64,000 bases of DNA from Elusimicrobiota bacterium (GTDB taxonomy: Bacteria > Elusimicrobiota > Elusimicrobia > UBA1565 > UBA9628), in contig DMMY01000016.1 of NCBI GenBank assembly GCA_003452935.1, positions 142,009 to 206,008 on the forward strand, given 5' to 3'. Positions 7,774-63,126 of this stretch are shown here, one piece after another. Made by a program: the position numbers and the translations under genes. Every line of letters starts with the position of its first letter. Position 1 is the first letter of the stretch. The notes below the pieces were generated by a model, which searched no databases, had not been told where the DNA came from, and was given only the letters and a program-made list of their open reading frames with translations.

Positions 7774-7784
7774 ATTCGCTGAGT

Positions 7785-7900: not shown

Positions 7901-7907
7901 GGCACCG

Positions 7908-11666: not shown

Positions 11667-11763
11667 GAAGTTCCTTTATAAACGGATGCCGATAAAACAG
11701 AGCCGACGGCCTTCGGCCGTCGGTGGCGCGCGCTCCCTCGGAGCGCGCGCTCGCACAAAAACA

Positions 11764-12336: not shown

Positions 12337-12338
12337 GA

Positions 12339-13894: not shown

Positions 13895-13896
13895 GG

Positions 13897-15912: not shown

Positions 15913-15941
15913 TGACATGAATGTCGCATAGAAGTATATTC
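15913..15941 (+). promoter_or_regulatory. Sigma70-like promoter TTGACA-17-TATATT for the OM barrel/gmd genes
   Basis: TTGACA at 15913-15918, a 17-nt spacer, TATATT at 15936-15941. AGGAGA RBS at ~15963, ATG at 15975. Confidence 0.6.
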
Positions 15942-15974
15942 TCAAGGCAAATTTACTGTTCAAGGAGAATGCGA

Positions 15975-20451: not shown

Positions 20452-20469
20452 TTATTTAAAGGGAATGCC

Positions 20470-21495: not shown

Positions 21496-21521
21496 AAGTC
21501 GGGATCATCCTGCAGGCGCGC

Positions 21522-23167: not shown

Positions 23168-23168
23168 T

Positions 23169-41075: not shown

Positions 41076-42323
41076 ATGGAAGACGCTTCAATCAAGTTCG
41101 CCGCCTTAAGAAGGTCCCGGCTTCCGATCAAATTGGCCTTTTACGAACCCTATCCGATGGGCCTGGGCGGCAACTATCTCACCCAGCGCCTGATCCTGGA
41201 GCGGCTCAATCGCGCACGTTTTTTACCCATCGTGCTAGCTCCCAGGGAGGGGGCGGCGCTTGATCGATTTCGGACAATGGGGGTACAATGCATTGTGATA
41301 CCTCCGCCCGAAACCCTCAATCGCTATGGCGGCGCAGCTCTGAGAGTTGGGGCGTTCGAAAAGTTAAAAGCCGCCGCAGATCTGGTTAAATACAACCTTC
41401 GGTTGGCCAAATTCCTGCACGAGCGGAATATCGATGTCGTCTACGCCAATTGCGTACGCGCCCAACTGAGCATAGGCCTCGCCGCCCGGCTCGCACGGGT
41501 GCCAAGTCTTCTCTATATCAAAGGGGAATTGGCGAATCCGTTTATAGATCGCCTCTGTTTTTTAATGGCCTCAAGACTCCTGTTTTTCTGCGCTCAAAAT
41601 CGCGATGACCGATACCCTTTTTTCGTGCGCTGGTTTCGGCGCAAGATCGGCATCCTAAAAATCGGACTGGATCCAGCCTTGATAGCGGGAGCTCAAGGGC
41701 ATGATTCCACTGCTCTTCGCGAGGAACTCGATATCAGGCCTGACCGCATTAATACGGCGGTGTTGGCGCAACTCTACAGACCCAAGGGACAGCATCTTGT
41801 CATTGAAGCTCTCTCTAGGCTGGTAGCCGAATTCCCCCAGGTACGCCTGTATCTTTTAGGAGATCATGTCCTCGAAGAATACCGCAATTACAAGACAGAA
41901 CTCGAAGCCCTGATCGAGCGGCATGGTCTTACCCGGCATGTCCTCTTCACCGGATGGCGCAAGGACGCGCTGGAGATCGCCAACCTAATGGACATCGTCA
42001 TTCATCCTTCCTTGGCGGAAGGATTCGGCCGCGCCATCCTGGAATCGTTGGCCTTGGGCAAGCCCGTTATCGCGTCGGCTGTTGGCGGAGCAAGGGAAGC
42101 CATCCGTGATGGGCAAAACGGTTTCCTGGTGAAAGCCGGCGATGTCGATGCTATCACACTGCGATGGCGCGAGCTACTATCTAATGAGAGACTTCGGCAA
42201 AGGCTAGGACAGGAAGCCAAAAACACTGTATTTTCCGAATACTTGATAGACGACAAAGTGGCTCGCCTCGCTGACATATGGGCTGAGATGGCCTCGGGAC
42301 GAAAAAAAGAATGTGTGGCATAG
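41076..42323 (+). CDS. Glycosyltransferase family 1 (GT4-like)
   Basis: C-terminal EGFGRAILESLALGKPVIASAVGGAREAIRDGQNGFLV signature. Confidence 0.8.
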   Translation: MEDASIKFAALRRSRLPIKLAFYEPYPMGLGGNYLTQRLILERLNRARFLPIVLAPREGAALDRFRTMGVQCIVIPPPETLNRYGGAALRVGAFEKLKAAADLVKYNLRLAKFLHERNIDVVYANCVRAQLSIGLAARLARVPSLLYIKGELANPFIDRLCFLMASRLLFFCAQNRDDRYPFFVRWFRRKIGILKIGLDPALIAGAQGHDSTALREELDIRPDRINTAVLAQLYRPKGQHLVIEALSRLVAEFPQVRLYLLGDHVLEEYRNYKTELEALIERHGLTRHVLFTGWRKDALEIANLMDIVIHPSLAEGFGRAILESLALGKPVIASAVGGAREAIRDGQNGFLVKAGDVDAITLRWRELLSNERLRQRLGQEAKNTVFSEYLIDDKVARLADIWAEMASGRKKECVA

Positions 42324-46031: not shown

Positions 46032-47954
46032 ATGTGCGGAATAGCCGGGCTTTTTTCTCGCGCGCCGCGCCGGCACGAGCCCCTCTTATCGAGCGCCTCA
46101 GCCATGGTGCGCGCAATCCGTCATCGCGGGCCCGACGGCGAGGGAATTTGGACCGACCCTCGGGGGCATACGGCATTGGGCCACGCCCGACTGGCCATCA
46201 TTGATGTGACAGAAACCGGCAAGCAACCCATGATCTCCCGAGACGGGAATTTCGTCCTGACCCTAAATGGCGAGATTTACAATTACGTTGAACTGCGCCG
46301 CGAGCTTCTCCAGGCAGGATTAAAGCTTCGCGGAACGTCCGATACCGAGGTACTGCTCGAAGCCATGGCTCATTGGGGCATCGAAAGCACACTGGCGCGC
46401 TCACGCGGCATGTTCGCCATGGCAGTTTGGGATATCGAAAGACAATGCCTTTGGCTCGCGCGCGATCGCGTCGGCAAAAAGCCCCTTTACTTCTACGATC
46501 ACGCCGACACCTTTATGTTCGCATCAGAAATCAAAGGCTTGCTGGCCGCGCCAGACGTCCAGGTCACTATTTCACAGCAATCACTCTCTGATTATCTATC
46601 GCTCGGATTCATCCTGGGCTCCGACACAATCTATCGCGAAATATCGGAAGTGCGGCCCGGCACGCTGATAAAAGTCGGGATAGGACTCCAAACTCGACAA
46701 GAGAGCGTCTATTGGCGGTTTCCTGCCCAAACAGCCCGCATCCTAGCGCCGGAGGAAATACAGGAAGAAACGGAAAAACGGCTCAGCGATGCCGTTCGCC
46801 TAAGATTACGCGCGGATGTGCCCGTCGGCGTATTCCTGTCCGGGGGCATAGACAGCGGCCTGATCACCGCCTTCGCCGCGACACAGTCCAGAGAGCCGAT
46901 CCATTCCTTCACTGTCGCGTTCAGCACTTCCACCTTTGACGAATCCAGGCTCGCGCGTTTGGTCGCCCAACGCTACGCGACCATCCATCATGAAATTTAC
47001 CTTAACCCCGACCTTGAGGAACTGCTCCCCAAGGTGGTGCGAACCTATGACGAACCTTTCGCGGATCCGTCAGCCTTGCCTACTTACGCTATTTCTGGCG
47101 AGGCGGCAAAGCGCGTCAAGGTCGTTCTCAACGGCGAAGGCGCCGATGAATTATTCGGTGGCTACAGGCGCGTTTTCGCGATGCGCTGGCTCGCAAAAAT
47201 CGACCATCTCCTGCGCAAATTTCCGCCCAACACTCTAAGATCGATTGCGGACGCCTTGCCGCGGCCGAGGGGGTTCCGCAGCGCATATTCATTCCTGCAC
47301 CGCTTCGCCAGGGCGGCGCAAGCCGATTCCGCGACCCGTTATCTTTTATGGTCTTCGGATGGTTTCGATCATGACGAGAAACAGCGACTCGGCCTGATCG
47401 GCGCGAAAGACTCTACTCGTCCCACGGCGCAAGCCTTAAGAGATTGCCTCGCTTCCTACAAGACCTTGCCGGCATTATCCGAATTCATGGCGTTCGATTT
47501 TCTCGTTGGAATGGCCGATTGCCTTCTCCCCAAGATAGATATGGCCACCATGGCGCATGGCTTGGAGGGGAGATCCCCTTTCCTGGACCAGGAAGTCGTT
47601 GAATGGGCGGCTGGAATCGACAAATCAGCGCTTCTCGCCGGCTGGAAAACCAAACCGGTTCTACGCGCCATTGCAAGTCGCCATTTGCCGTCCGCAGTGA
47701 CGCGCGCGCCGAAGCGGGGGTTTGAGATTCCCCTGGTACAGTGGATGAAACACGATCTGCACGCCATGGCGCATGATATCTGCGCGTCGCGAGACAGCAT
47801 CCTATTCGACCTATTCGATCGTCGAGAGGTGCTGGCCGTTCTAAATCGTCAAGTTCTCATGGATGATGAGCGCTGGGCCAAGCGCATGTGGACGCTCCTA
47901 ATGCTCGCTTACTGGGGGAGGTGCGCTCATGAAGATCGCTTGCATTGCGCCTGA
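46032..47954 (+). CDS. Asparagine synthetase B-like glutamine amidotransferase no. 2
   Basis: MCGIAGLFS; SGGIDSGL PP-loop. Confidence 0.85.
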   Translation: MCGIAGLFSRAPRRHEPLLSSASAMVRAIRHRGPDGEGIWTDPRGHTALGHARLAIIDVTETGKQPMISRDGNFVLTLNGEIYNYVELRRELLQAGLKLRGTSDTEVLLEAMAHWGIESTLARSRGMFAMAVWDIERQCLWLARDRVGKKPLYFYDHADTFMFASEIKGLLAAPDVQVTISQQSLSDYLSLGFILGSDTIYREISEVRPGTLIKVGIGLQTRQESVYWRFPAQTARILAPEEIQEETEKRLSDAVRLRLRADVPVGVFLSGGIDSGLITAFAATQSREPIHSFTVAFSTSTFDESRLARLVAQRYATIHHEIYLNPDLEELLPKVVRTYDEPFADPSALPTYAISGEAAKRVKVVLNGEGADELFGGYRRVFAMRWLAKIDHLLRKFPPNTLRSIADALPRPRGFRSAYSFLHRFARAAQADSATRYLLWSSDGFDHDEKQRLGLIGAKDSTRPTAQALRDCLASYKTLPALSEFMAFDFLVGMADCLLPKIDMATMAHGLEGRSPFLDQEVVEWAAGIDKSALLAGWKTKPVLRAIASRHLPSAVTRAPKRGFEIPLVQWMKHDLHAMAHDICASRDSILFDLFDRREVLAVLNRQVLMDDERWAKRMWTLLMLAYWGRCAHEDRLHCA

Positions 47955-49140
47955 CGATCTATCCACGCTCCTTTTCTGCAAAACGCTTTCACGCCTGCTT
48001 GCCCGGCATGCAGACGTGAAATTGGTCACCATCGGCGGACCGGTGCAAGGACTTCCCGTTGATATGTATAGCGATGAAATTCGCAGGGATGTGATCTCCA
48101 CCCATCTAAAAATCCCCATGCAGCGATTCATATCCCCGGTTCGGGATTTGGTTTATCTATTCCGACTCTGGCAAATGATAAGACGAGAAAAGTGTTCGGC
48201 TGTCGTGACGTTTACGACGAAGCCCAACATTTACGGCCAATTTGCCGCCTTTCTAGCCGGTGTGCCCCTGAAGGTCATGGCTGTGCGCGGGCTAGGTCGA
48301 ACCTTCAATGCGGACGCCACGGGCAACGAGCGCCTGCTGCGCTGGTTGATGACCATGCTCTACAAATTCGCCTGTCGAACGGCGACGAAAGTTTGGTTCA
48401 CGAATCACGGAGATCTCGTCGATTTCACCTCAACCGGCATATGCCTTGCGGAAAAGACCTTTCTCACCAAAAATGCTATCGACCTCACGGATTACTGCAG
48501 CGCCCGCATTAGCCCGGAACGATTGCGATCGCTTCGCCATGAAATGGGAATGAGGCCTATGGACCAAGCGGTGATTATGGTTGCCCGATTAATCGAAGAA
48601 AAGGGCGTCCGGGAATTCGCACAGGCAGCCTCGGCCTTGCGCGAGCGCGCCCCAAGGCTGCGATTCCTGCTTGTAGCCCCCGAAGAACCCCATAACCCAT
48701 CTACGGTGCCCGTCGCGTTCATTCGCGAGATGGAATCCCGGGCCAATCTTACATGGCTGGGATTTCGCAAGGACGTCCGAGAATTATACGCCCTTGCAGA
48801 TATTGCGGTCCTGCCCTCCTACTACAAAGAAGGAGGATACCCTCGCGCCCTTCTCGAAGCTATGGCGTATGGCAAACCCGTCATAGCCGCTGACACGCCG
48901 GAGTGTCGTGGCCCGGTGGAAACTGGGCGCAACGGCTATCTGGTCCCGCCGCGAGATGGGGAGGCTCTAGCCCGCGCTATTGAAAAGATCACGGCGGATC
49001 CGGAATTATTACTCAGCATGGGGCGCGAATCCTTGCAGCGAATGCGCCAGGAATTCGATGATCAAATCGTCTTCAACAAGCTTATAAACGATGTGCTATT
49101 GCCGTGCAGCGCCACGGCGGGAGATTCCTCCGCCCCCTAG
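47929..49140 (+). CDS. Glycosyltransferase family 1 (GT4-like)
   Basis: EGGYPRALLEAMAYGKPVIAADTPECRGPVETGRNGYLV. Confidence 0.8.
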   Translation: MKIACIAPDDLSTLLFCKTLSRLLARHADVKLVTIGGPVQGLPVDMYSDEIRRDVISTHLKIPMQRFISPVRDLVYLFRLWQMIRREKCSAVVTFTTKPNIYGQFAAFLAGVPLKVMAVRGLGRTFNADATGNERLLRWLMTMLYKFACRTATKVWFTNHGDLVDFTSTGICLAEKTFLTKNAIDLTDYCSARISPERLRSLRHEMGMRPMDQAVIMVARLIEEKGVREFAQAASALRERAPRLRFLLVAPEEPHNPSTVPVAFIREMESRANLTWLGFRKDVRELYALADIAVLPSYYKEGGYPRALLEAMAYGKPVIAADTPECRGPVETGRNGYLVPPRDGEALARAIEKITADPELLLSMGRESLQRMRQEFDDQIVFNKLINDVLLPCSATAGDSSAP

Positions 49141-49221
49141 GCCCCAAAGCCTCGAAATTTTCACATTGGCCACGGCCCCTCAATATTGCACAATATCCAG
49201 AAACGGATTTGAGAAAATCCA

Positions 49222-49828
49222 AATGAAAAGAGCTTTAGACTTGGCCTTAGCCTGTTCCGGCCTCCTGTTCTGCGCACCTATCATGCTCGCCATCACGCTA
49301 GTCCAAAAACTAAGCTCCCCAGGCCCTTTGCTCTATCGCGGGAGCCGGGTGGGAAAAAATGGCCGCAGATTCAGCATCCTCAAGTTCCGAACCATGGTCG
49401 TCAACGCTGAAAAAATTGGCGGGTCCTCAACCTCCGATAGCGATCCCCGGATCACCTCAATGGGCAGGTTTCTGCGGCGATGGAAGCTGGATGAATTGCC
49501 CCAACTTTGGAACGTGATCACCGGGGACATGAGCCTTGTCGGCCCCCGCCCGCAGGTCGAACACGATGTTGCCCAGTACTCGGAGGATGAGAAAAAAATT
49601 CTTACGGTTCGCCCGGGAATCACAGACTGGTCTTCGATCAAGTTCCGCAATGAAGGAGCAATTTTGGCGAAATATCCGGATCCGGATCAAGCCTACATCG
49701 AGCAAATTCGTCCGGAGAAAATTCGTCTGCAGATGCTCTATATCCGCGAGATGTCCTTTTTGGGCGATTTAGAAATACTCTGGGCGACCATCGTCGCATT
49801 ATTCGGAGCAGAGGTCAAACTGCCATGA
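49222..49828 (+). CDS. Initiating sugar-phosphate transferase (PglC/WbaP C-terminal-domain type, 'bacterial sugar transferase')
   Basis: MKRALDLALACSGLLFCAPIMLAI TM helix, then LYRGSRVGKNGRRFSILKFRTM ... GDMSLVGPRP. Start trimmed to the ATG at 49222. Confidence 0.8.
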
Positions 49829-50559
49829 AACCCTTAAAAACCAAAGCCGAAGAGCTGGCGGGGCCGCAAATCGCCAAATTATTCGAGATCTCTTGCGATC
49901 CACTCCAGGTCAAGCTGGAAAACGCCCCAAAGTACTTCAGGCGCAAGACCATGACCCGATTGCTGGCCCTCTATGAGATTTTCAAGCAAATCTTAGATGT
50001 TAAGGGATCCATTATAGAATGCGGGATTCATAGAGGTTTCGGCCTCATGAGTTGGGCCCAATTCAGCGCCGTTTTGGAACCCGCGAACCTCACTCGCCGA
50101 ATCTACGGATTCGACAGCTTCGAAGGTTTCACCCAAGTCCATCAGCATGATAAGAACACCCGCCTAAATCCCAAAAGAGGGGGGCTAAGAGCCGATTGCC
50201 ACCAGGAACTAACTCAACTCATCAAGGTTTACGATTCCGACCGCTTCCTTGGGCATGTGGACAAGGTTCACATGATCAAAGGCGACGCGACGAAAACGAT
50301 TCCCGATTTTCTATCAAAAAACAGGCATCTTATGGTCAGCCTTCTATTTCTGGACTTCGATTTATATGAGCCAACCAAAGTAGCCATTCAACAATTCTTG
50401 CCACGCATGCCGAAAGGCGCTGTCCTGGCCTTTGATGAACTCGACAACCCCATCTGGCCCGGCGAGACGCAGGCTGCCCTAGAAGCAATAGGTCTCAGCC
50501 AGCTCAAAATCCGCAGGTTGCCGTGGGATCCCTACATAGGTTATGCCCTCCTTGACTAA
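49825..50559 (+). CDS. TylF/MycF-family O-methyltransferase (class I SAM MTase)
   Basis: GIHRGFGLM...GDATKTIPDFL...LLFLDFDLYEPT blocks characteristic of macrocin-O-MTase-like sugar methyltransferases. Confidence 0.6.
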   Translation: MKPLKTKAEELAGPQIAKLFEISCDPLQVKLENAPKYFRRKTMTRLLALYEIFKQILDVKGSIIECGIHRGFGLMSWAQFSAVLEPANLTRRIYGFDSFEGFTQVHQHDKNTRLNPKRGGLRADCHQELTQLIKVYDSDRFLGHVDKVHMIKGDATKTIPDFLSKNRHLMVSLLFLDFDLYEPTKVAIQQFLPRMPKGAVLAFDELDNPIWPGETQAALEAIGLSQLKIRRLPWDPYIGYALLD

Positions 50560-51388
50560 CGCATTGAATCCCACTGTCGCGAGTTGTCAGGTCTTTGCCA
50601 AGAACCTCAGACTAACCGCCCTGCGTATGGTTCATGCGGCCAAAAGCGCTCATGCCGGGGGCTCTCTTTCAATAGCAGACCTCTTGGCAGCCCTCTATGG
50701 AGGCGTTCTTCGCGTCGATTCAAAACGACCAGACAGCCCGGATCGCGACCGATTCATTTTAAGCAAAGGGCACGCCTGCGCAGCGTTTTATGCCGCGCTT
50801 GCATTCCGCGGTTTTTTCCCCATGGAATGGCTTGATACCTTTTATCAGAATGGAGGACGCTTGGCCGGCCATGCCACCCACTCGGGCGTCCCAGGGGTAG
50901 AGTTCTCCACCGGATCGCTCGGCCACGGCCTATCGGTAGCGACCGGGATGGCCCTAACGGGCAAACGCGACGGCGCCCCCTGGAGGGTATTCGCCCTTCT
51001 TTCGGATGGGGAATGCGACGAAGGTTCAACCTGGGAGCCGGCCCTCTTCGCCCCGCATCACCGGCTAGACAACCTGGTCGCGATCATCGATTACAACAAG
51101 ATTCAAAGCCTAGGACACACGAAGGAAGTGCTCGACCTCGATCCTTTCGCCGAGAAATGGCGGGCATTCGGATGGGCGGTCCAAGAGATTGACGGCCACG
51201 ACATGAGCAAAATCATCGCCGCCCTCACAACGATTCCTTTTACGCAAGGGAAACCGTCCTGTCTGATCGCCCATACGGTCAAAGGCAAAGGTGTCAGTTT
51301 CATGGAAGACAAGCTCCTCTGGCACTACCGCAACCCATCGACCGAGGAATACCAGGCAGCCATAATCGAGATTGAAAAAATGCCATGA
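50543..51388 (+). CDS. Transketolase, N-terminal (ThDP pyrophosphate-binding) subunit
   Basis: GHAGGSLSIADLLAAL ... LSKGHA ... GSLGHGLSVATGMAL ... SDGECDEG. Confidence 0.85.
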   Translation: MPSLTNALNPTVASCQVFAKNLRLTALRMVHAAKSAHAGGSLSIADLLAALYGGVLRVDSKRPDSPDRDRFILSKGHACAAFYAALAFRGFFPMEWLDTFYQNGGRLAGHATHSGVPGVEFSTGSLGHGLSVATGMALTGKRDGAPWRVFALLSDGECDEGSTWEPALFAPHHRLDNLVAIIDYNKIQSLGHTKEVLDLDPFAEKWRAFGWAVQEIDGHDMSKIIAALTTIPFTQGKPSCLIAHTVKGKGVSFMEDKLLWHYRNPSTEEYQAAIIEIEKMP

Positions 51389-52317
51389 GAACAGCATTTT
51401 TCAAGACGCTCGAAGAATTGGCGGCTAAAGAACCAAGAATAAACCTCATCACCGGCGACCTCGGCTTCACCGTCGTTGAACCTTACGCGGAGCGCTTTCC
51501 GCTGCAATTCCTCAACGCAGGAGTAGCCGAGCAAAACATGACGGGACTGGCGGTGGGGATGGCTCTGTCAGGCAAGATCGTCTTCACTTATTCGATAGCC
51601 AATTTCCCTACCCTGCGATGCATCGAGCAGATTCGCAACGACGCCTGCTATCACAAGGCGAATGTGAAGGTCACATGCGTGGGAGGCGGGCTCGCCTATG
51701 GGGCGCTGGGCAGTTCCCATCAAGCCACCGAGGACATCGCTATCATGCGCTCGCTTCCAGGCATGACCGTCGTCGCTCCGGGCGACCCCGTCGAAGCGGA
51801 ACAAGCCACCCGCGCCATCGCGGCGTTCGATGGCCCCTGCTATCTGCGTCTCGGCAAAGCCGGAGAACCTCCCGTCCACCGCGACCCCATCGATTTTAAA
51901 CTTGGGAAAGCCATTCGGGTTCGCGACGGCAAGGACATCACGATCATATCGACAGGAGGCATGCTTCACCCATGCTTTGAGGCAGCCAGCCAACTGGAGC
52001 AAGCCGGTTTGTCCGCGCGGCTTCTCAGCATGCACACAATCAAGCCTATCGATGTCCAGTCGGTCCTATCCGCCGCGCAAGAGACTTCAGCGATCCTGAC
52101 GGTTGAAGAGCACTCGGTGATCGGCGGGCTGGGCAGCGCGGTGGCCGAAATTCTCGCGCAGCAAAGTTCCCGCCGGATAGAATTCCGAATCATGGGACTG
52201 CCCGACCAGTTCTGCCGGACCGTAGGCAGCCAGGACTACCTCAGGCAAGCCTTCAAGCTGTCGCCAGAAGCCATCAAACTCGCAGCCACCGAACTGATTC
52301 GAAGAACCGATGAATAA
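51385..52317 (+). CDS. Transketolase, C-terminal (pyrimidine-binding) subunit
   Basis: LNAGVAEQNMTGLAVGMALSGKIVF ... GALGSSHQATEDIAIMRSLPGMTVVAPGDPVE. Confidence 0.85.
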   Translation: MRTAFFKTLEELAAKEPRINLITGDLGFTVVEPYAERFPLQFLNAGVAEQNMTGLAVGMALSGKIVFTYSIANFPTLRCIEQIRNDACYHKANVKVTCVGGGLAYGALGSSHQATEDIAIMRSLPGMTVVAPGDPVEAEQATRAIAAFDGPCYLRLGKAGEPPVHRDPIDFKLGKAIRVRDGKDITIISTGGMLHPCFEAASQLEQAGLSARLLSMHTIKPIDVQSVLSAAQETSAILTVEEHSVIGGLGSAVAEILAQQSSRRIEFRIMGLPDQFCRTVGSQDYLRQAFKLSPEAIKLAATELIRRTDE

Positions 52318-53449
52318 TATCCCGCGCCGCCTTGACGCATACCGAGTACCTTTCGTCAAACCAAAGGAGCACTACCTGAGGCTGAAGCCAGAAATCGACG
52401 GCGCCTTTATAGGGTGCCTCAAAAACGGCGATCTCATCCACCGCCAGCAGCTTCTCGATTTTGAAAAGCACTTGTCCGCCTATGTTGGGACAAAATACGC
52501 CATCGGCCTAGCCAGCGGCTACCACGCGCTGCTTTTCGGACTTATGGCCGCCAAAGTCGGCCCGGGAGACGAAGTTATTACCGTGGCGCATACATTTGCC
52601 GCGTCGGTCTCGGCCATCGTGCACACCGGCGCCAAGCCTGTATTAATCGACGTCCAGGACGATTTCAACATGGACGTCACCCAACTCAAGACCGCGTTGA
52701 GCAACCGCACGAAAGCTATCATGCCGGTTCATCTCAACGGCAGGCTTTGCGATATGGACCAAGTGATGGACTTCGCCGACAAGCACCGCCTGGCAGTCAT
52801 CGAAGACGCCTGCCAGGCTTTGGGCGCAACACATGGAGGCACCATGGCGGGAGCCTTCGCCACGGGGTGCTTCAGTTTCTATCCCTTCAAATCCCTTGGC
52901 GGTTTCGGCGACGGAGGCGCCTTAACCACGAACGACCCGGATGTCGCACGCTTTGCCACCCTGATGCGCTACAATGGAGAGGACCGGGCGACGGGAGATT
53001 TCTTCTATCACGGACACACCGCGTTGCTCGACAACGTCCAAGCCGCCGTGCTTGACGTAAAGCTGCGGCATTTTCCAGCATGGCTCGAGCATCGCCGCGA
53101 GATAGCCGCCATCTACAGCAAGGGCCTTGCCGGCATCCCCGGCCTTAGCACCCCCCGCATCGACGGCGGCAAAAATCGCGACGCATGTCAGAACTACGTT
53201 ATCCGAACCGTCCAGAGAGACTCCTTGCGCGCGCATCTGACTGCAGCGGGAATCGAGACCCTTGTCAGTTGGCCAAAACCACTGTGGGAACACGCAGGGC
53301 TCAGTCTCGGGAAACCGAATCTTCCAAAAACCAAGGCCATCTGCCAAGAAGTTTTATCATTGCCGCTATGCGCCGAAACCACCCACGAAGAAACGCAGTT
53401 CGTCATAGACAGCATCCGGAGCTTTACAAGCCAATGCCCCTCGCCTTAA
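52310..53449 (+). CDS. DegT/DnrJ/EryC1/StrS-family PLP-dependent sugar aminotransferase (PseC-like)
   Basis: AIMPVHLNGRLCDMDQVMDFADKHRLAVIEDACQALGA ... FSFYPFKSLGGFGDGGAL. Confidence 0.85.
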   Translation: MNNIPRRLDAYRVPFVKPKEHYLRLKPEIDGAFIGCLKNGDLIHRQQLLDFEKHLSAYVGTKYAIGLASGYHALLFGLMAAKVGPGDEVITVAHTFAASVSAIVHTGAKPVLIDVQDDFNMDVTQLKTALSNRTKAIMPVHLNGRLCDMDQVMDFADKHRLAVIEDACQALGATHGGTMAGAFATGCFSFYPFKSLGGFGDGGALTTNDPDVARFATLMRYNGEDRATGDFFYHGHTALLDNVQAAVLDVKLRHFPAWLEHRREIAAIYSKGLAGIPGLSTPRIDGGKNRDACQNYVIRTVQRDSLRAHLTAAGIETLVSWPKPLWEHAGLSLGKPNLPKTKAICQEVLSLPLCAETTHEETQFVIDSIRSFTSQCPSP

Positions 53450-54591
53450 GCCGGCGTTGCGACCGATCCGTTCAATCGGAAATACGCGCCATGTCGGTGG
53501 AATGCGAGCAATTAGCCGGATTAAACCTCGCCCAAGGGGTGTGCGACACGCCCATCCCAACGCCCGTTTGTCTGGGCGCGCAAAGAGCAGTTGGCGATGG
53601 GATCAACAGCTATACTCGTTTCGACGGGCTCATCGAACTACGCTGCGCCATCGCTCAAAAATTGCGTCGTTACAACGCGATCTCGGCAGACCCGGAATCC
53701 GGCATCGTCGTCAGCTGCGGATCAACCGGTTCTTTTTATGCGGCCTGTTTGGCTCTCCTTAATCCCGGCGATGAAGTCCTCCTTTTTGAGCCGTTTTACG
53801 GCTATCACCTCAATACCCTGCTCGCAGTCGAGGCCGTGCCTGCCTTTATCCGCATGCAAGCGCCGGGATGGACCTTCGCCAAGGCGGACATCGAGAAAGC
53901 GATCACGCGCAAGACGCGAGCCATCGTGGTCAACACTCCAAGCAATCCATCGGGAAAAGTATATACTCGGCAAGAACTCCAGTGGATCGCGGATGTGGCG
54001 GAAAAACACGATCTCTTTGTGCTTACTGACGAAATCTACGAATATATTCTTTATGAAAACCGCAAGCACCTAAGCCCGGCATGCCTGCCCGGCATGGCGG
54101 AACGCACCATCACGATCTCCGGATTCTCGAAGACTTTCAGCATCACGGGCTGGAGAATCGGCTACAGCGCGTGCCACGCAAAATGGGCGCAAATGATCGG
54201 ATATATGAGCGACCTGATCTACGTCTGCGCCCCGGCCCCTCTGCAGGCCGGCGTGGCGCGTGGACTCGCTGAGCTCGGGGATGACTACTACGATAGCCTC
54301 CGCAAAGACTTCGAGCGCAAGCGATCGGTGATTTGCGCGGCGCTCGACAAGGCAGGATTGACTCCCTGCACGCCACAAGGCGCATACTATGTCCTCGCAG
54401 ATATCAACCGTTTGCCCGGGAAGACCGGCAAGGAACGGGCGATGCATCTCTTGCGGTCTATCGGCGTGGCATGCGTTCCGGGAGAGGCTTTCTTTCACAA
54501 TGGCCAAGATGGCGCGGGCATGGGACGCTTCTGCTTCGCCAAGACCGATGAAGAACTTGAGGATGCGTGCAGACGGCTAGCGCGATTATGA
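53426..54591 (+). CDS. Class I/II PLP-dependent aminotransferase (AspAT-like fold)
   Basis: VVNTPSNPSGKV ... SGFSKTFSITGWRIGY lysine-motif region. Start trimmed to MPLALSRRC (ATG ~53426), overlapping the DegT 3' end. Confidence 0.7.
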
Positions 54592-55355
54592 ACGATCACG
54601 ATTTTTCGACGGTTACGGAAATTCCCGGGAATAAAGCATCCCTCGAGCAGTTGTCCATGATCCACACGCGATATCGATTGGCATATGATTTTTGCGCCGA
54701 CAAGGACGTGCTCGAAGCGGCTTGCGGCCCAGGGCGAGCGTTGGGTTATCTGGCGCAAAAAGCGCGATCCGTCGTCGGAGGAGACCTTTCCCAGAACCTG
54801 GTCGATCTCGCCAACCGCCACTATGGAGGGAGAATTTCAGTTGTACGAATGGACGTCCAGGCAATGCCTTGGGCCGACCACAGTTTTGACGTAGTGATTC
54901 TCTACGAGGCCCTCTATTACCTGCCTGACGTAGACCGCTTCATAGCTGAAGCTCGTCGGATTTTGCGACCGGAAGGCGTACTTCTGCTGTGCACGCCAAA
55001 CTGTGAGTGGGAGGGATTTAATCCCAGTCCTTTCAGCCGTAAATATTTTTCAGCCTCAGAATTGCGCCTCTGGCTCGAAAAAGCAGGCTTTACCGTTCAG
55101 ATCAAGGCATGCTTTAAAGTCTCCCATGACACCTTAAAGCAAAAAGCAGTTTCTGCAGCACGCAAAGCCGCAGTGACGCTGGGACTTATTCCTAAAACGA
55201 TGAAAGGCAAGACGTTCCTCAAACGGCTTTTTTACGGGCAACTCTCCGAACTCGGACCAGAGATAGATACGACGGCGCCCGCCAAGGTGCCGGTGTCCGT
55301 GGAGCCCAGGCATCTCCCGAACTACAAGGTTCTCTATGCCATCGCCAAGCGATAA
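54588..55355 (+). CDS. Class I SAM-dependent methyltransferase (Methyltransf_11-like)
   Basis: LEAACGPGRALGYLA motif I. ATGA overlap with the upstream stop. Confidence 0.7.
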   Translation: MNDHDFSTVTEIPGNKASLEQLSMIHTRYRLAYDFCADKDVLEAACGPGRALGYLAQKARSVVGGDLSQNLVDLANRHYGGRISVVRMDVQAMPWADHSFDVVILYEALYYLPDVDRFIAEARRILRPEGVLLLCTPNCEWEGFNPSPFSRKYFSASELRLWLEKAGFTVQIKACFKVSHDTLKQKAVSAARKAAVTLGLIPKTMKGKTFLKRLFYGQLSELGPEIDTTAPAKVPVSVEPRHLPNYKVLYAIAKR

Positions 55356-56505
55356 CCTTGGTCCTGCCTTTCTTGTCATCCTGACCGCGTCTATGGCTTG
55401 CGCAGGGACGCCCCGAGGGCCAAAAGCGGCCTTGACACGATTCCCCATCGGAATTTACGGAGGAAATGACCCAAAGCATCTGGCACGGCTCAAGAGCGAT
55501 GGTTTCGACTCATTTCATTGCAGTTGGAAGGATTTTGACCGTCTAGCGGCCATGGCAAAAGAAGCCAAGCACCAAGGAATGCGGATGATCATTTCCCCAG
55601 ATGAAATCCGTCGAAAAGCATCCTCTCATATCCAGGAGTGGCCGGTTGATGCCTGGTACCTATTCGACGAACCAGATGTCCATCGGTTATCAAGCGCCAC
55701 TCTCCAAGGGATCTCCGAGCAAACCCGCTCGTGGGATCCAGAACGGCCACAGACATTCGTCATCGGGCAGGGATCTCCCACGAACGTCTACGGCCGGATC
55801 GGGGATATATTGATGATGGACTGGTATCCCGTTCCACACAGAGCGCCAGATTCCGTAGCGGATCAGATCGACCTCCTCATGAAGACGCTTCCAAAAGGGA
55901 AACCTTTCTGGATGGTAATCCAGGCATACGATTGGGCCGATGAGATAAAGGATCCAACCAAGATCAAGGGCCTGCGATTCCCGAACCGCCATGAAATCCG
56001 CTTCATGAGTTATATCGCCGTCATGCATGGGGCCCGGGGGCTTTTTTATTGCACTTTACTCAAGAAAGGAAAGACCCTTTTCGAATATCCGGAACTCTGG
56101 CAGGAAGTTTCCGTTGTCACTCGAGAAATAAGGGATATGCGTCCCGTCTTCGAACGAGGCAAGCGGGTACGGCTGCCATTCCCGCCAAACCCGGATGGCG
56201 TAGAGGCAAAGGCGTGGCGTTATAAGAACCGCGACCATGTCATCATCCTCAATCGCAAAGCCACCGTCTATCAGAAGGTTCCCGAGGAACTTTTCAATGG
56301 GCTATGGCAGCCGATCCACTGCGCAAAAAACAATTGTCGAGAGGCCCTCTCATCGTTTTATGGCGCTTGGTATCTGAGGCCCTATCACGTAATGGTTTTC
56401 AAGAGCCGGCTGAATTGGTTTCGGGGACTATCGCGGGGTTTGCCAATAGCGACCTCCTGTGACCAAGACGACACTCTAACCCGCAGTAGGCATTTGGTAA
56501 AATAA
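55336..56505 (+). CDS. Lipoprotein, putative TIM-barrel glycoside-hydrolase-like polysaccharide-processing protein (paralog 1, island GC)
   Basis: Lipobox LTASMAC. Shares FPIG, AWYLxDEPDV, GDILMxDWYPVPH, EIRFMxY and LPFPPNPDG..AKAWRY blocks with the ORF at 58377-59486. Confidence 0.35.
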   Translation: MPSPSDNLGPAFLVILTASMACAGTPRGPKAALTRFPIGIYGGNDPKHLARLKSDGFDSFHCSWKDFDRLAAMAKEAKHQGMRMIISPDEIRRKASSHIQEWPVDAWYLFDEPDVHRLSSATLQGISEQTRSWDPERPQTFVIGQGSPTNVYGRIGDILMMDWYPVPHRAPDSVADQIDLLMKTLPKGKPFWMVIQAYDWADEIKDPTKIKGLRFPNRHEIRFMSYIAVMHGARGLFYCTLLKKGKTLFEYPELWQEVSVVTREIRDMRPVFERGKRVRLPFPPNPDGVEAKAWRYKNRDHVIILNRKATVYQKVPEELFNGLWQPIHCAKNNCREALSSFYGAWYLRPYHVMVFKSRLNWFRGLSRGLPIATSCDQDDTLTRSRHLVK

Positions 56506-56514
56506 TTATTCTTA

Positions 56515-58431
56515 ATGCCAAAAATATTTTTTTCATATAAACGCCTCCTTATCATAGGCGCGGATGCGATGGCTTTTACGGTTTCTTACGCCCTAGCCTT
56601 TTTCCTGCGCTTTGATCTCCATATCCCTCTGAACCAACTAGCCAACTTTCTCGTCACCGTCTGGCTCGTGGTCGGCATCCGGCTGCTGACCTTCCTCTAC
56701 CTCGGCGCCTACGAAGGCGTCTGGCGCTACGCCAGCATCGCGGACCTCTCCACCCTCCTAAAAGCCATGGCCGCGAGCCAGGTCGTCATCACCGCCGCGG
56801 TCCTGTTCCTCCAGCACGCCAATTTTCCGCGCTCCACGCTCCTCATCGACGCCGCCTTGGCCCTCATCTTCGTCGGCCTCACCCGCTTCGGAATCCGCAT
56901 GACCCGCCAATGGCGCCAGCAAGGCCACCCACAGGACCTTCCCCGGCTGATCATCTTCGGCGCCGGGGATTTGGGGGAGACCATCGTGCGCGACATGCAA
57001 AGGCGCAAGCGCCCCACGCACAAAATCGTGGGCTTCGCCGACGACGATCACGCCAAATGGCGCATGCGCATCCACAACGTGCCCATCTTGGGAGGCCGCA
57101 AGGAACTGCCCAAGCTCATCGAGAAGCACGGCGTCGACGAGGTCGTAGTCGCGGTCAACCACTCGCGCGGACCCCTGATCCAGGACTTGATCGAGCTCTG
57201 CCGCAAGGAGCCGGGCCGCAAGGTCGAATTCAAGACCGTGCCCACCATCGAGGAGACCCTGCGCAGCGACCATACCCATCAAAAAGGCTTTCGCAGAATC
57301 GAGCTCTCGGACCTCTTGCGCCGCAAGCCCGTCGCCACCGACCTGGGAGCGGTCAAGAACCTCATCGCGGGCAAGACGGTCCTGGTCACGGGCGCGGGCG
57401 GGAGCATCGGCTCCGAGCTCTCGCGCCAGATATTGCGCTTCAAGCCATCCAAGCTGATCCTCCTGGAGAAGCACAACACGGCCCTTTTCTACATCGACCG
57501 GGAGCTCTGCGCGGTCAAGAACGGGACCTGCCTCGTGCCCGCGGCGGGAGACATCACGGACCCCGACCTCCTGGACAATCTCTTCGACGCGCACAAGCCC
57601 CAGCTCGTGTTCCACGCGGCCGCGCACAAGCACGTCTCGCTCATGGAGGCCAATCCCCAGGAGGCGGTCAAGAACAACACCATAGGCACCCATCTCCTGG
57701 CCGAGAAAGCGGCGCGCTACCACGCGGAACGCTTCCTGTTCATCTCCACGGACAAGGCGGTGCGGCCCACCAGCGTCATGGGCGTCTCCAAGCGCATGGC
57801 CGAGATGGTGATCCGGGCCCTGGCCCCGGCCGCAGAGACCAAGTTCCTGTCCGTGCGCTTCGGCAATGTCCTGGGCAGTTCCGGCAGCGCCGTCAACATC
57901 TTCAAGGAGCAGATCGCCCATGGCGGGCCGGTGACCGTGACGCATCCGGAGGTCACGCGCTACTTCATGACCACCCAGGAGGCGGTCGAGCTGATCCTTC
58001 AGGCCTGCTCCATGGGCAGCGGGGGGGAGATTTTCGTCTTGAACATGGGAGAGCCCGTAAAGGTGGCGGACGTCGCCCGCAACCTCATCCTCTTGTCGGG
58101 CCTGGAGCCGGACAAGGACATCAATATCGTCTACACGGGCCTGCGGCCGGGCGAGAAAATGTACGAGGAGCTTTTCCGGAGCAACGACGTGCGCCAGGAC
58201 ACGGGCCACCCGGACATATTCGCGGCCCTGCCCGAGGAGGCGGACCTCGCCATCCTGCGCAACCATATCGAGAGCCTGCGCGCGCTTTGCAGCCAGGCCG
58301 ACCCGGCGCCCCTGTTGCGCAAAATCCAGCAGCTCGTGCCCGCCTACACGCCTTCTGCCGTGCACGCGGCCCAACCATGCCCTTGCGACCAGCCATCAGC
58401 TATAGCCCCTGTCTCAGACTTGGCCTCCTAG
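56515..58431 (+). CDS. Membrane-anchored UDP-GlcNAc 4,6-dehydratase (WbpM/PglF/CapD family)
   Basis: N-terminal TM helices; KTVLVTGAGGSIGSEL Rossmann motif; full CapD-type architecture. Only the first ~100 nt are AT-rich; the rest is high GC. Confidence 0.85.
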   Translation: MPKIFFSYKRLLIIGADAMAFTVSYALAFFLRFDLHIPLNQLANFLVTVWLVVGIRLLTFLYLGAYEGVWRYASIADLSTLLKAMAASQVVITAAVLFLQHANFPRSTLLIDAALALIFVGLTRFGIRMTRQWRQQGHPQDLPRLIIFGAGDLGETIVRDMQRRKRPTHKIVGFADDDHAKWRMRIHNVPILGGRKELPKLIEKHGVDEVVVAVNHSRGPLIQDLIELCRKEPGRKVEFKTVPTIEETLRSDHTHQKGFRRIELSDLLRRKPVATDLGAVKNLIAGKTVLVTGAGGSIGSELSRQILRFKPSKLILLEKHNTALFYIDRELCAVKNGTCLVPAAGDITDPDLLDNLFDAHKPQLVFHAAAHKHVSLMEANPQEAVKNNTIGTHLLAEKAARYHAERFLFISTDKAVRPTSVMGVSKRMAEMVIRALAPAAETKFLSVRFGNVLGSSGSAVNIFKEQIAHGGPVTVTHPEVTRYFMTTQEAVELILQACSMGSGGEIFVLNMGEPVKVADVARNLILLSGLEPDKDINIVYTGLRPGEKMYEELFRSNDVRQDTGHPDIFAALPEEADLAILRNHIESLRALCSQADPAPLLRKIQQLVPAYTPSAVHAAQPCPCDQPSAIAPVSDLAS

Positions 58432-59486
58432 CGGCCTGCCTGCTGGGACTAAGCGCCTGCCAAGGGGGGGGGGCCTATTTCCCAATCGGATTATTCAACA
58501 CGGGAAATCCCAAGGACCTCCGGTCCATTAAAAAGGCCGGATTTAACGCGGTCCAGACTTACTCCCGCGACCCGGCGCAGCTCAAGGCCCTGGCCAAGGC
58601 CGCCGATAAAGCCGGCGTCAAGCTCCTGGCCCATCCCCAGGAGCTCTCGGCCTCGACCGTGCCCGTGCGCGGCTGGCCCATGGCGGCTTGGTATCTCGTC
58701 GACGAGCCCGACGTCAACGGCATGAGTCCGAGCGAGCTCTGCTACCTCGCCGGCAAGGTCAAGGCCTGGGCGCCCCGGATACCGGGCGCTTTCGTGGTCG
58801 GCGCCGGGGCCAAGGCCCGGGACTACGCGGCCTGCGGCGACATCCTCATGGTCGACTGGTACCCCGTGCCCCACATGCCCCTTGAATCCGCGGGAGAGAA
58901 CGTGCGCCTCACCGTCGAGGCCGCGGGCGACAAGCCGGTCTGGGCCGTGCTCCAGGCCATGAACTGGAAAGACTACGCCCAGCGCGATCCCAAAAAGCCG
59001 CGCGTCGGCAGATTCCCGACATACGGCGAGATACGCTTCATGACCTATCACTCCATCATCGCCGGGGCCAAGGGCGTATGGTACTTCTCATACGCCAAGC
59101 CCGGCGGCGCGACCCTGGCGCAAAGCCCGGAGGAATGGCTCGCCGTCACCGCCATGGCCAAGGAACTCGCCGCGCTTCGCCCCATCTTCGAGGGGGGAAC
59201 TCCCGCCTATCTTCCCTTCCCGCCCAACCCGGACGGCCCCCTGGCCAAGGCCTGGCGCTATCACGGCCGCGACTACGTCATCATCGCCAACCCCAAGCCC
59301 AAGGCCATGCAGCTCGTGCCCGAGGCGTTGCTCGCGATGCATTGGCGGCCGCTTTTCGAGACCAGGCGCTACCAGAAGGAGCTCTTGAAGAAGGTCGGGG
59401 AAGGCTTTTATCTGCCGCCCTACCGCGTCCTGGTCTTCGAAAGCCGCCTCTCCTGGCGCTCTTCCCGCCCCAAGACCTGGCCTTAA
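58377..59486 (+). CDS. Lipoprotein paralog 2 of the 55336 protein (host-like GC)
   Basis: Lipobox LLGLSAC. Same conserved blocks as paralog 1. Lies inside a long artefactual ORF (56910..59486); the real start is the ATG at 58377. Confidence 0.35.
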   Translation: MPLRPAISYSPCLRLGLLAACLLGLSACQGGGAYFPIGLFNTGNPKDLRSIKKAGFNAVQTYSRDPAQLKALAKAADKAGVKLLAHPQELSASTVPVRGWPMAAWYLVDEPDVNGMSPSELCYLAGKVKAWAPRIPGAFVVGAGAKARDYAACGDILMVDWYPVPHMPLESAGENVRLTVEAAGDKPVWAVLQAMNWKDYAQRDPKKPRVGRFPTYGEIRFMTYHSIIAGAKGVWYFSYAKPGGATLAQSPEEWLAVTAMAKELAALRPIFEGGTPAYLPFPPNPDGPLAKAWRYHGRDYVIIANPKPKAMQLVPEALLAMHWRPLFETRRYQKELLKKVGEGFYLPPYRVLVFESRLSWRSSRPKTWP

Positions 59487-59619: not shown

Positions 59620-59955
59620 ATGCAATCTAATATATATGTTAGTAGCGGCCATATTAAAGCCAAGCCGCTCATCAGGTACAAACTGACGGATGAAGAGGGA
59701 AATTTAACGCAAATAGCGGCGTGGAGGGTTCCGGCAGATGCGAAGCATCCGGAAGGGGTGCGATACAGAATGGCTTTTGTCCCAAGGGGGCATTCGCGCC
59801 CCGTCGTCCTCTACGATAACCATCATCCAAAAGGACACCACAAACACATAGGCGCGCAAGAAAGCCCCTATCTGTTTTTCGACGCGCGCCGGTTGGTGCT
59901 GGATTTCAACCGGGACATCCAGCTCTGGAAGCAAGCCAGGGGGTGGCCGCAATGA
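59620..59955 (+). CDS. Small protein with an HHPKGHHKH motif, putative TumE-like (DUF6516-type) toxin component
   Basis: 111 aa; YDNHHPKGHHKHIG histidine-rich motif; its 3' end overlaps the next gene (ATGA). Confidence 0.35.
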   Translation: MQSNIYVSSGHIKAKPLIRYKLTDEEGNLTQIAAWRVPADAKHPEGVRYRMAFVPRGHSRPVVLYDNHHPKGHHKHIGAQESPYLFFDARRLVLDFNRDIQLWKQARGWPQ

Positions 59956-60323
59956 AGGTCGTTACCTTTGAAATCAAGGACGCGGCAACGGCCATGGCTC
60001 AGTTCCAAGAGGCGTTCGAAGCCGCCCACGGCCGAAAACCCTTCAAGCCGAAGTCCGGGGTCTATTTCACGAGCCTCGCAGCGGTGAGGAATTTCCTCAC
60101 TCCGAAACGGCTGGCCCTGCTTCGCCTCATCCGCGCGAAAAAGCCCCACAGCATCTACCACCTAGCCCAATTAACGGGCCGGAGCTTTTCCAGCGTCCTC
60201 AAGGACGTGGACATGCTTGCCAAACATGGCCTCGTGAGATTATCAAGGGACAAGGCCTCGGCGCGGCGCGCCGTGCATCCGTGCGTCGGCTACAGCGCCA
60301 TCCAGGTTTGGATCAACGTTTAA
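59952..60323 (+). CDS. Winged-HTH DNA-binding protein, putative antitoxin partner
   Basis: LTPKRLALLRLIRAKKPHSIYHLAQLTGRSFSSVLKDVDMLAKHGLV HTH; tightly coupled to the upstream small ORF. Confidence 0.45.
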   Translation: MKVVTFEIKDAATAMAQFQEAFEAAHGRKPFKPKSGVYFTSLAAVRNFLTPKRLALLRLIRAKKPHSIYHLAQLTGRSFSSVLKDVDMLAKHGLVRLSRDKASARRAVHPCVGYSAIQVWINV

Positions 60324-62435: not shown

Positions 62436-62804
62436 ATGATGTATCATGGCCGGGTAGGGCGATACGAACTGATCTTCTATGAAGATGCCCGCGGCATATG
62501 CCAAGTCCGAGATTATCTGCGCGCCCAGAGCAAAAAGGTCCGGGGCCATGCCGGCTGGTTATTGCAGCGGCTCGAGGAAGACGGCCCGAATCTGATCCGG
62601 CCGTCAGCAGCCTGCCTGGGCGACGGGATATATGAGCTTCGGATCATCGCGGAGAGGCGCCAACATCGGATTCTATACTTCTTTGATCGCGAGTTTATCG
62701 TGGCTACGAACGCTTTTCTCAAGAAGTCGGACCGAGTGCCCGACGCGGAAATAGAAAAAGCCAAGAAGACGCGCGCGGCGTGGAGAGGCCACCGAGGAAA
62801 ATGA
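62436..62804 (+). CDS. higB: HigB-like (Gp49/DUF891, RelE/ParE superfamily) toxin
   Basis: LEEDGPNLIRP...GDGIYELRII...HRILYFFDREFIVATNAFLKKSDRVPDAEIEKA, the canonical Gp49-like toxin pattern. Confidence 0.7.
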   Translation: MMYHGRVGRYELIFYEDARGICQVRDYLRAQSKKVRGHAGWLLQRLEEDGPNLIRPSAACLGDGIYELRIIAERRQHRILYFFDREFIVATNAFLKKSDRVPDAEIEKAKKTRAAWRGHRGK

Positions 62805-62805
62805 C

Positions 62806-63126
62806 ATGAGCACGAAAAAGAGACGGCACGTTCGCCTTAAGGATTTTTTACGGGAAGAATTGAAGGATCCGGCAATCCGAAGGTTTTATCACGAAGCCCG
62901 CGCCGAATGGCTCGCCGCCCAAGCGGTCATGAAGGCAAGGGCAGCGGCTCATTTGACGCAGGCTCAGTTGGCCCGCAGGATTCACACCAGCCAGCAGGCC
63001 ATCTCACGCATCGAGGCGGGGGAGCAAAACACCACCGTCGAAATTCTCCAGAAAATCGGCCGCGCCCTGGGCATGGAGCTGCGCATCGCTTACAAACCCA
63101 GAAGCCTGCGTCTTAAACACGCCTGA
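62806..63126 (+). CDS. higA: XRE-family HTH antitoxin (HigA-like)
   Basis: AAAHLTQAQLARRIHTSQQAISRIEAGEQNTTVEILQKIGRALGMEL XRE HTH; toxin-first order as in higBA. Confidence 0.7.
   Translation: MSTKKRRHVRLKDFLREELKDPAIRRFYHEARAEWLAAQAVMKARAAAHLTQAQLARRIHTSQQAISRIEAGEQNTTVEILQKIGRALGMELRIAYKPRSLRLKHA

Follow-up and report, generated by a model that had tools for sequence, protein, structure and literature searches.

Why does one polysaccharide locus carry two copies of the same lipoprotein gene, one on either side of a wbpM-like gene, and why do these copies differ so strongly in base composition? The question is raised by a 64,000-nucleotide stretch of contig DMMY01000016.1 (assembly GCA_003452935.1, an Elusimicrobiota bacterium), hereafter the window, in which copy A, wbpM and copy B follow each other as three co-oriented genes at 55.3-59.5 kb on the + strand. 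The answer that we favour, and hold to be fairly probable, is that A and B are PslG-like periplasmic polysaccharide-processing enzymes and that one of them was imported together with a replaced glycan cassette. The three genes are the following.

55336-56505, + strand: copy A, cassette-borne member of a lipoprotein family resembling glycoside hydrolase (GH) family 42; open reading frame (ORF) of 389 aa
56515-58431, + strand: wbpM/pglF-like gene for a membrane-anchored UDP-N-acetylhexosamine (UDP-HexNAc) 4,6-dehydratase homologue (Pfam Polysacc_synt_2, E 6e-108, plus CoA_binding_3)
58377-59486, + strand: copy B, family member with host composition; 369 aa, starting MPLRP

Two paralogues and a composition step inside wbpM

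BLASTP with composition-based statistics aligns A and B at 41% identity and 60% positives over 328 aa with 4 gaps (E 2e-85). Since the alignment begins at the first barrel strand and extends to the C-terminus, spanning the whole mature protein, a low-complexity effect is ruled out, and the paralogy proposed in the initial annotation is borne out. The shared blocks from which it had been read (FPIG, AWYLxDEPDV, GDILMxDWYPVPH and LPFPPNPDG..AKAWRY) are indeed present and correspond to invariant or near-invariant columns of the family. The contrast in guanine-plus-cytosine (GC) content described there is equally evident: copy A has a GC of 0.527 and a GC at third codon positions (GC3) of 0.58, against 0.656 and 0.84 for copy B, and wbpM as a whole has a GC3 of 0.86. 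The ratio of nonsynonymous to synonymous divergence (dN/dS) suggested as a further check was computed and is uninformative, because dS is saturated (~3.2).

Public gene calls start copy A at Met20 (55393), which gives 370 aa, and wbpM at 56569. The start of B at 58377 is supported by homology and by the public calls; the 55-nt overlap with the end of wbpM (stop at 58431) suggests that translation of the two genes is coupled. The frame of B is also open far upstream, as an 858-aa mechanical ORF (56910-59486) reaching ~1.47 kb through wbpM, and this extension is a high-GC artefact.

In a neighbour-joining tree of 199 full-length members, A and B fall into different deep clades (75 and 68 leaves), and each has relatives ~65% identical in other genomes. 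Separate deep clades, taken with the saturated dS, indicate that the duplication is ancient and that A is not a recent copy of B. At 80% conservation only three positions distinguish the two clades, including one on beta8 (Phe237 in A, Trp235 in B); a difference in specificity was considered on this ground and set aside, three positions being too few.

The surroundings of the two copies comprise a block of distinct composition and its edges.

18483-19151, + strand: short Wza/OPX gene of host composition in the left flank (Pfam Poly_export plus SLBB; GC3 0.83)
19200-56650, + strand: lower-GC glycan-specific cassette, ~37.4 kb with 31 same-strand genes, recognised by composition and Pfam content
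49091-55355, + strand: module travelling with A-clade genes, made of a Bac_transf priming phosphoglycosyl transferase (PGT), TylF-like methyltransferase, split transketolase, DegT, class I/II aminotransferase and methyltransferase
56640-56664, no strand: right compositional junction, given as the 2-lnL support interval of a maximum-likelihood GC3 change point (log-likelihood ratio ~100)

All 31 same-strand genes at 19366-56505 have a GC3 of 0.53-0.68, against 0.83-0.90 in the left flank (an unnamed ORF at 15921-17231, gmd and wza) and similarly high values in wbpM and B on the right, and the boundaries with both flanks are abrupt. On the left the change falls in the spacer between wza and a radical SAM gene (~19.15-19.37 kb), GC3 dropping from 0.83 to 0.53 in the next gene. 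On the right it is a step within ~25 nt at wbpM codons ~42-50, so that wbpM itself is compositionally chimeric, with a GC3 of 0.52 in its first 50 codons and of 0.8-0.96 after them. The recombination junction announced near 56.5 kb is supported by this step, and its position is refined to the 5' end of wbpM (~56.65 kb). Residues 1-45 of WbpM are also unusually divergent, with 33% identity to the closest orthologue (locus L012) against 56-68% for the rest of the protein; N-termini in general diverge faster, and the fit of this divergence to a crossover near codons 42-50 is suggestive only.

The block holds a putative nonulosonic-acid module (radical SAM/SPASM, NeuB, cytidylyltransferase, WbqC and PIG-L), Wzc, Wzy, a GT2 glycosyltransferase, Wzx, a BNR protein, a PorV-like barrel, GT4 glycosyltransferases, two AsnB-like amidotransferases, methyltransferases and, at 49091-49828, the only PGT in the window. 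Its 3' end is formed by the split transketolase, DegT, the class I/II aminotransferase, a methyltransferase and, as the last gene, copy A.

A junction within a conserved gene, in which mis-joins can occur, in a metagenome-type organism could be read as an assembly or binning chimera joining two organisms inside wbpM. However, four assemblies made independently from different samples agree at 99.99-100% identity over 16.7-18.6 kb across the junction, so that the GC step is not an assembly chimera; we rejected this explanation, which has next to no chance of being right. A fifth assembly contributes a 3.3 kb contig (99.9%) that lies wholly to the right of the junction, with the 3' end of wbpM and B alone, and all five carry the same allele.

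Surface-polysaccharide clusters are commonly below the GC of their genomes, and A and B might both be long-resident, the low GC of 19-56.6 kb being a property of the locus under relaxed or diversifying selection, with no recent transfer. In keeping with this, no tRNA gene was found in the window, no integrase was seen among the cassette genes scanned with Pfam, no repeat boundary was found, and two copies share one locus of another genome (L004) at uniform high GC. Yet the GC3 step lies within a gene and the low value is uniform across the 31 genes, the N-terminal divergence of WbpM is unusual, and the same cassette has host-like GC3 in L004, which indicates that low GC is not intrinsic to these genes. 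Long residence of both copies thus seems improbable to us.

The A-module recurs in other Elusimicrobia. It is found in L025 (51-69% identity) and L004, and in rearranged versions in L024 and L027. In L004 and L001 the order is aminotransferase-methyltransferase-A-like-wbpM with a B-like gene 4 kb upstream, all with host-like GC3. L025 has PGT-transketolase-transketolase-DegT-(gap)-aminotransferase-methyltransferase-A-like (61%), followed by another family gene, wbpM and a partial third copy. B-type genes close clusters, after wbpM in L012 and after a PGT in L006 and many others. The composition step, the deep split between A and B and the A-module synteny support the view of the initial annotation that the cassette brought its own copy of a polysaccharide-processing enzyme already present at the locus. 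The recipient would have been arranged as wza-[old cassette]-wbpM-B and the donor, a lower-GC member of the Elusimicrobia, as aminotransferase-methyltransferase-A-wbpM; a right crossover ~130-150 nt inside wbpM would then yield A-wbpM(chimeric)-B. Both this direction and this mechanism of transfer are what we infer from the arrangement.

As an observation on copy number, in the L025 locus (8938-14404, in an Elusimicrobiota metagenome-assembled genome, MAG) wbpM is preceded by a tandem pair of family genes and followed by a partial third; expansion around wbpM is thus recurrent.

Locus replacement by recombination in conserved flanks underlies serotype switching at O-antigen or capsule loci such as galF-gnd of E. 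coli and dexB-aliA of pneumococcus. As in those loci, a glycan-specific block, here of lower GC, lies between conserved genes (wza on one side, wbpM-B on the other), the proposed crossover falls in a flank gene, and neither integrase nor tRNA was seen. Unlike them, the present case concerns an uncultured groundwater Elusimicrobia lineage, and no alternative allele was recovered, so that the polymorphism itself is presumed. A cassette swap by recombination in a conserved flank gene is an ordinary, textbook event, and the interest of this one would lie mainly in its coming from a phylum that has hardly been studied.

Distribution and genomic context of the family

Scans of A and B against Pfam-A and NCBIfam gave no family match, the sole Pfam line being AP_endonuc_2 at E 0.12. 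Neither B nor the family profile had a real match among PDB sequences, the one useful fragment being 27 residues against the GH42 entry 9ta3, and our literature searches found no paper on this lipoprotein family. For B, a word-indexed homologue search returned more than 300 relatives, and for A 194; these are unnamed or called "hypothetical protein", every named one belonging to an Elusimicrobia/Elusimicrobiota MAG; no characterised member is among the relatives found. Copy A has an exact match (P0085) and otherwise nearest relatives at 59-65% identity, and the nearest relatives of B and of wbpM are only ~66% identical.

Scanning one genome of each GTDB species with a sequence pattern located 381 loci, the best 80 of which are nearly all from Elusimicrobiota, including Elusimicrobiaceae, Endomicrobiaceae and groundwater lineages, and the family appears largely confined to this phylum. 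An exhaustive profile search of 50%-identity clusters retrieved 306 clusters at E<=1e-30, 3184 at E<=1e-10 and 6169 at E<=1e-3; counts rising in this way with looser thresholds indicate that the close family is the core of a far larger unannotated superfamily, some members of which carry CBM9-like or other additional domains. The conserved residues are, in B numbering, F35-P36, G55, W105-Y106-x-x-D109-E110-P111, D155, D160-W161-Y162-P163-V164-P165-H166, W189, Q193, W197, R212-F213-P214, E218, R220, G233 and E263, most of which persist in distant relatives. All the invariant ones are kept in copy A; B is likewise intact, with all invariant residues and host codon usage.

The neighbours at the best 80 loci were placed by tblastn with annotated window proteins. 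A Bac_transf PGT lies directly upstream (same strand, <=400 nt) in 31/80 loci and wbpM in 3/80; a PGT occurs within 10 kb in 42/80 and Wza/Wzc in 17-18/80. In L042, which belongs to the Wza/Wzc group, the family gene is accompanied by Wzc, Wza, a Wzy_C protein, a low-molecular-weight phosphotyrosine phosphatase and a BBP2_2 beta-barrel. Family genes are thus encoded within, and co-oriented with, biosynthetic and export genes, and the family is a regular part of Elusimicrobiota Wzx/Wzy plus Wza/Wzc polysaccharide loci, tightly tied to the priming step.

Three fused proteins were weighed as Rosetta-stone evidence and set aside as such. In P0045 a WecA-like Glycos_transf_4 domain precedes the family domain, in P0226 it follows it, and in these two proteins, which look topologically sound, the family domain comes after or before the terminal transmembrane helix, on the predicted periplasmic side. 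The third, P0210, combines Bac_transf with the family domain, retaining an internal Met and a full lipoprotein leader, and is for that reason probably a read-through of adjacent genes and not a true fusion.

Export was examined through the N-termini, the lipobox [LVI][ASTVI][GAS]C being read by eye and by regular expression.

55336-55401, + strand: putative signal peptide of A ending at Cys22 (SMAC), atypical, from N-terminal comparison with A-clade relatives
58377-58460, + strand: lipoprotein signal peptide of B with lipobox LSAC and Cys28, the Cys being aligned across the family

The N-terminus of B, MPLRPAISYSPCLRLGLLAACLLGLSAC, has the basic n-region, hydrophobic core and canonical lipobox LSAC of a lipoprotein. 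In A, Cys22 aligns with the lipobox Cys of relatives, the box being SMAC, and the n-region MPSPSDNLGP is without positive charge. This MPSPS start is common to A-clade relatives with canonical lipoboxes; starting at Met20, as in the public calls, leaves no signal peptide. By a loose pattern, a lipobox-like motif is found in 117/180 full-length relatives. The label of lipoproteins originally given to both copies is clear for B and weaker for A, with its SMAC box and uncharged to acidic n-region.

A GH42-like barrel with a non-canonical active site

AlphaFold2 models built with family alignments are confident for both copies (B, mean predicted local distance difference test score, pLDDT, 94.2 and predicted template-modelling score, pTM, 0.90; A, 89.7 and 0.88). 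Both consist of an eight-stranded beta/alpha barrel (B ~37-237) and a C-terminal beta domain of roughly 70 residues (~289-356), and the (beta/alpha)8 barrel superposes on members of clan GH-A. The fold comparison scored highest with the GH164 beta-mannosidase 6t5o (24.0), followed by the GH42 enzymes 3tts, 5xb7 and 1kwk (23.4-21.5), a GH5/DUF4038 protein (21.1), GH140 (20.1), GH35 (about 20) and PslG, 4zn2 (16.8). With the A model, Foldseek returned only glycosidases made of a TIM barrel plus a beta domain (GH13, GH30, GH5, GH27, GH164), at template-modelling scores of ~0.5.

The relation to GH42 is also visible at the sequence level. A GH42 reference alignment was built from three annotated plasmid genes, assigned to GH42 by E-values of 1e-96 to 6e-222 against PDB GH42 entries, and HHalign aligned it with the family profile at 93-96% probability, with E down to 1e-9. 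The aligned region covers beta6-alpha8 and includes the common motifs D-[IV]-x-x-x-D-x-Y-P-x-P and "R..[SY]..A..GA.G..[YF]F". The GH42 Pfam model PF02449 matches neither A nor B at E<=1, and the distant relative P0326 matches it weakly. On these models and alignments, GH42 is the nearest homologous family and the predicted fold is GH42/GH164-like. The initial suggestion of a TIM-barrel hydrolase-like enzyme holds as far as the barrel fold goes; its hydrolase part is qualified by the active site, the elements of which are the following.

55666-55674, + strand: A, invariant Asp111-Glu112-Pro113 with the proposed acid/base Glu, after beta4 (model strand 104-111)
55921-55923, + strand: A, invariant Gln196 at the end of beta7, the position of the clan GH-A nucleophile Glu
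58701-58709, + strand: B, invariant Asp109-Glu110-Pro111, after beta4
58854-58874, + strand: B, invariant DWYPVPH on beta6, aligned with the GH42 D-x-Y-P-x-P motif
58953-58955, + strand: B, invariant Gln193 at the very end of beta7; opposite the GH42 nucleophile Glu stands Leu192 or Gln193, depending on the register

The clan GH-A catalytic pair, one Glu on beta4 and one on beta7, is not found in the family. On beta4, GH42 reads W-H-[IV]-N-N-E-Y and the family W-Y-L-x-D-E-P, with Asp in place of Asn before the Glu; in the models this Glu comes directly after strand 4, where clan GH-A enzymes have their acid/base. On beta7, the GH42 nucleophile is the Glu of M-E-Q (E319 in a Deinococcus sequence), and HHalign pairs E319 with Leu192 and Q320 with Gln193. 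Strand periodicity, with W189, V191 and Q193 forming the conserved face, gives an alternative register that puts Gln193 at the Glu position; Q193 ends beta7 in both models, which favours this register over that of HHalign. The beta7 Gln is kept in 239/242 close and 94/97 aligned distant sequences, and the nucleophile Glu is absent from these in both registers.

Several readings of this active site may be considered. Catalysis may proceed by neighbouring-group participation of the 2-acetamido group of the substrate; a second carboxylate may have been relocated, for example to Asp160 or the family-specific Glu218; or the proteins may bind glycan without catalysis. TIM-barrel hexosaminidases such as GH20 rely on neighbouring Asp and Glu residues and dispense with an enzymic nucleophile (PMC10570127). 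Participation of the acetamido group is attractive given this precedent, the HexNAc sugars expected from WbpM and the two fusions to WecA-like HexNAc-1-P transferases. The likeness to the substrate-assisted N-acetylhexosaminidases (the D-E pair of GH20; GH18, GH84, GH85, GH123, GH185) is one of mechanism, an acidic pair on a barrel strand, without enzymic nucleophile, acting on 2-acetamido substrates, suggested by residue pattern and context; those enzymes belong to a different clan, and no homology to the family was detected.

The same residues might mean that A and B are GH42-derived pseudo-enzymes that bind nascent glycan as a periplasmic lectin, chaperone or export scaffold, a view favoured by the near-universal loss of the beta7 nucleophile and by the lack of characterised members among the relatives. 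On the other hand, D109, E110, D155, D160, Y162, H166, Q193 and E218 are invariant at the C-terminal ends of barrel strands across deep divergence, as is typical of active sites, and distant relatives have CBM9-type binding modules besides, which suggests that the barrel itself is the catalytic part. We judge a purely non-catalytic role to be rather unlikely.

Differences from the characterised neighbours in fold space are pronounced. GH42 beta-galactosidases and alpha-L-arabinopyranosidases (1kwk, 3tts, 5xb7) have ~650-700 aa in barrel, trimerisation and C-terminal domains, an Asn-Glu and a nucleophile Glu, and are cytoplasmic catabolic enzymes, whereas the family has 369/389 aa (~340 aa mature) in one barrel and one beta domain, Asp-Glu and Leu/Val-Gln, and consists of predicted exported lipoproteins in biosynthetic loci. 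The GH164 beta-mannosidase Bs164 (6t5o) has 658 aa, extra domains and the canonical Glu/Glu, and no sequence-level match to it was found. PslG (4zn2), the GH39 enzyme of the Pseudomonas aeruginosa Psl pathway, shows no detectable sequence relationship to the family and has both catalytic Glu and an N-terminal transmembrane anchor, in contrast to the lipobox and missing beta7 nucleophile seen here.

Candidate roles, and further features of the locus

PslG remains the closest functional analogue, as a periplasmic, membrane-tethered clan GH-A endoglycosidase of a Wzx/Wzy operon. PslG cleaves the polymer between repeat units and is required for normal biosynthesis, and a role in clearing misdirected polymer has been proposed for it (PMC13434223). 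By this analogy, the family would have a processing role. A and B would be anchored by an N-terminal lipid, facing the periplasm, as accessory proteins of Wzx/Wzy plus Wza/Wzc-type loci, and most likely would act as repeat-unit-specific endoglycosidases. Catalysis, if any, would use the substrate 2-acetamido group, which would fit WbpM HexNAc-type sugars, or Asp160/Glu218. Such an enzyme would have to match its glycan, particularly the linkage at the sugar set by the priming transferase; its gene would then normally stand directly after the priming PGT or wbpM, and a swapped-in cassette would bring its own copy, the two coexisting after the swap. Copy B would be either a leftover that has not yet decayed or an enzyme serving another polymer.

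A number of points weigh against this proposal. Neither register supplies a beta7 carboxylate, the canonical Glu being replaced by an invariant Leu/Val-Gln, which excludes the classical retaining mechanism and makes a non-catalytic role possible. HHalign was not significant at beta4 and aligned the wrong segment there, so that the acid/base assignment of Glu110 comes from strand position and a by-eye alignment. The signal peptide of A is poor, and all three fused proteins are unnamed single-contig singletons. With one PGT for two copies, B may be a functionless leftover or may have a role independent of the glycan. We found no strain in which these flanks enclose a different cassette, and although its low GC marks the composition of the cassette as foreign, it names neither donor nor date.

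The tie to priming transferases could also mean that the enzymes act at the lipid-linked reducing end, cleaving the glycan or dead-end intermediates off undecaprenyl-pyrophosphate for polymer release or carrier recycling. This would explain the link to priming transferases of both structural classes, with a family gene directly after Bac_transf in the 31/80 loci mentioned above and WecA-type fusions in both orders with the domain predicted periplasmic, and it would suit a membrane-proximal lipid anchor and an active site without the usual nucleophile. Its basis is context, however, the fusions being singletons; adjacency to the PGT is equally expected of an enzyme specific for the Wzy-made linkage, and the relatives with CBM9 resemble ordinary secreted glycanases. 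A reducing-end activity is, in our estimation, distinctly unlikely. We know of no enzyme for glycan release from the lipid carrier in capsule-type Wzx/Wzy systems.

A bolder combination, also unlikely, would be that the family, together with the superfamily of ~6,000 clusters surrounding it, is an undescribed GH family, descended from a GH42-like ancestor by loss of the nucleophile and change of Asn-Glu to Asp-Glu. It would act by 2-acetamido participation or another non-canonical mechanism at the reducing-end HexNAc installed by the priming transferase, and would be the dedicated partner of that transferase, cutting the Wzy-made linkage or freeing the glycan from the lipid carrier.

Whichever role applies, the interest of the family lies in its conservation throughout a phylum, in a confident glycosidase-fold prediction for proteins that neither Pfam nor NCBIfam covers and that match no solved structure in sequence, and in its oddities, namely Asp-Glu after beta4, no beta7 nucleophile and a steady place beside the priming transferase. 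It is a plausible new GH-like family with a putative glycosidase activity. If active, it would be a new CAZy-type family, a candidate tool enzyme for Elusimicrobiota glycans and a marker gene for their polysaccharide loci; if acting at the lipid-linked reducing end, it would bear on the release of Wzy-dependent polymers.

Further observations concern the cassette and its edges. Its lowest-GC sub-block (19366-24481, GC 0.45-0.54) carries radical SAM/SPASM, NeuB, cytidylyltransferase, an unknown gene, WbqC and PIG-L, and this nonulosonic-acid-like module lies between wza and wzc, genes that are neighbours in most related loci. A BNR_2 (sialidase-like) protein of 875 aa is encoded at 35878-38505, inside a cluster also making a NeuB-type sugar, and may be a second polymer-processing enzyme. 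The AsnB-like glutamine amidotransferases (42311-44242 and 46032-47954) and the split transketolase pair (50543-52317) beside DegT and class I/II aminotransferases suggest that the repeat unit contains an unusual amino-sugar, amidated or branched.

The Wza/OPX protein (18483-19151) has only 222 aa, with Poly_export plus SLBB, and appears to be without the pore-forming C-terminal part. The cassette encodes a PorV/UPF0164-like beta-barrel at 38502-39425, and a BBP2_2 beta-barrel stands beside the family gene in L042 (7844-9013). A short OPX protein with a separate beta-barrel resembles the proposed composite OPX/beta-barrel export system (PMC9601211).

To the right of B lie two toxin-antitoxin-like pairs (59620-60323 and 62436-63126; TumE/HVO_A0114 and Gp49-HigB-like/HTH_3), and a similar small pair occurs between the B-like and A-like genes in L004 (11223-11862); such pairs seem to mark variable locus edges. 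Finally, in the left part of the window, GC dips to 0.557 at 7001-8000, around an ORF at 7224-7727, in surroundings of 0.64-0.68.

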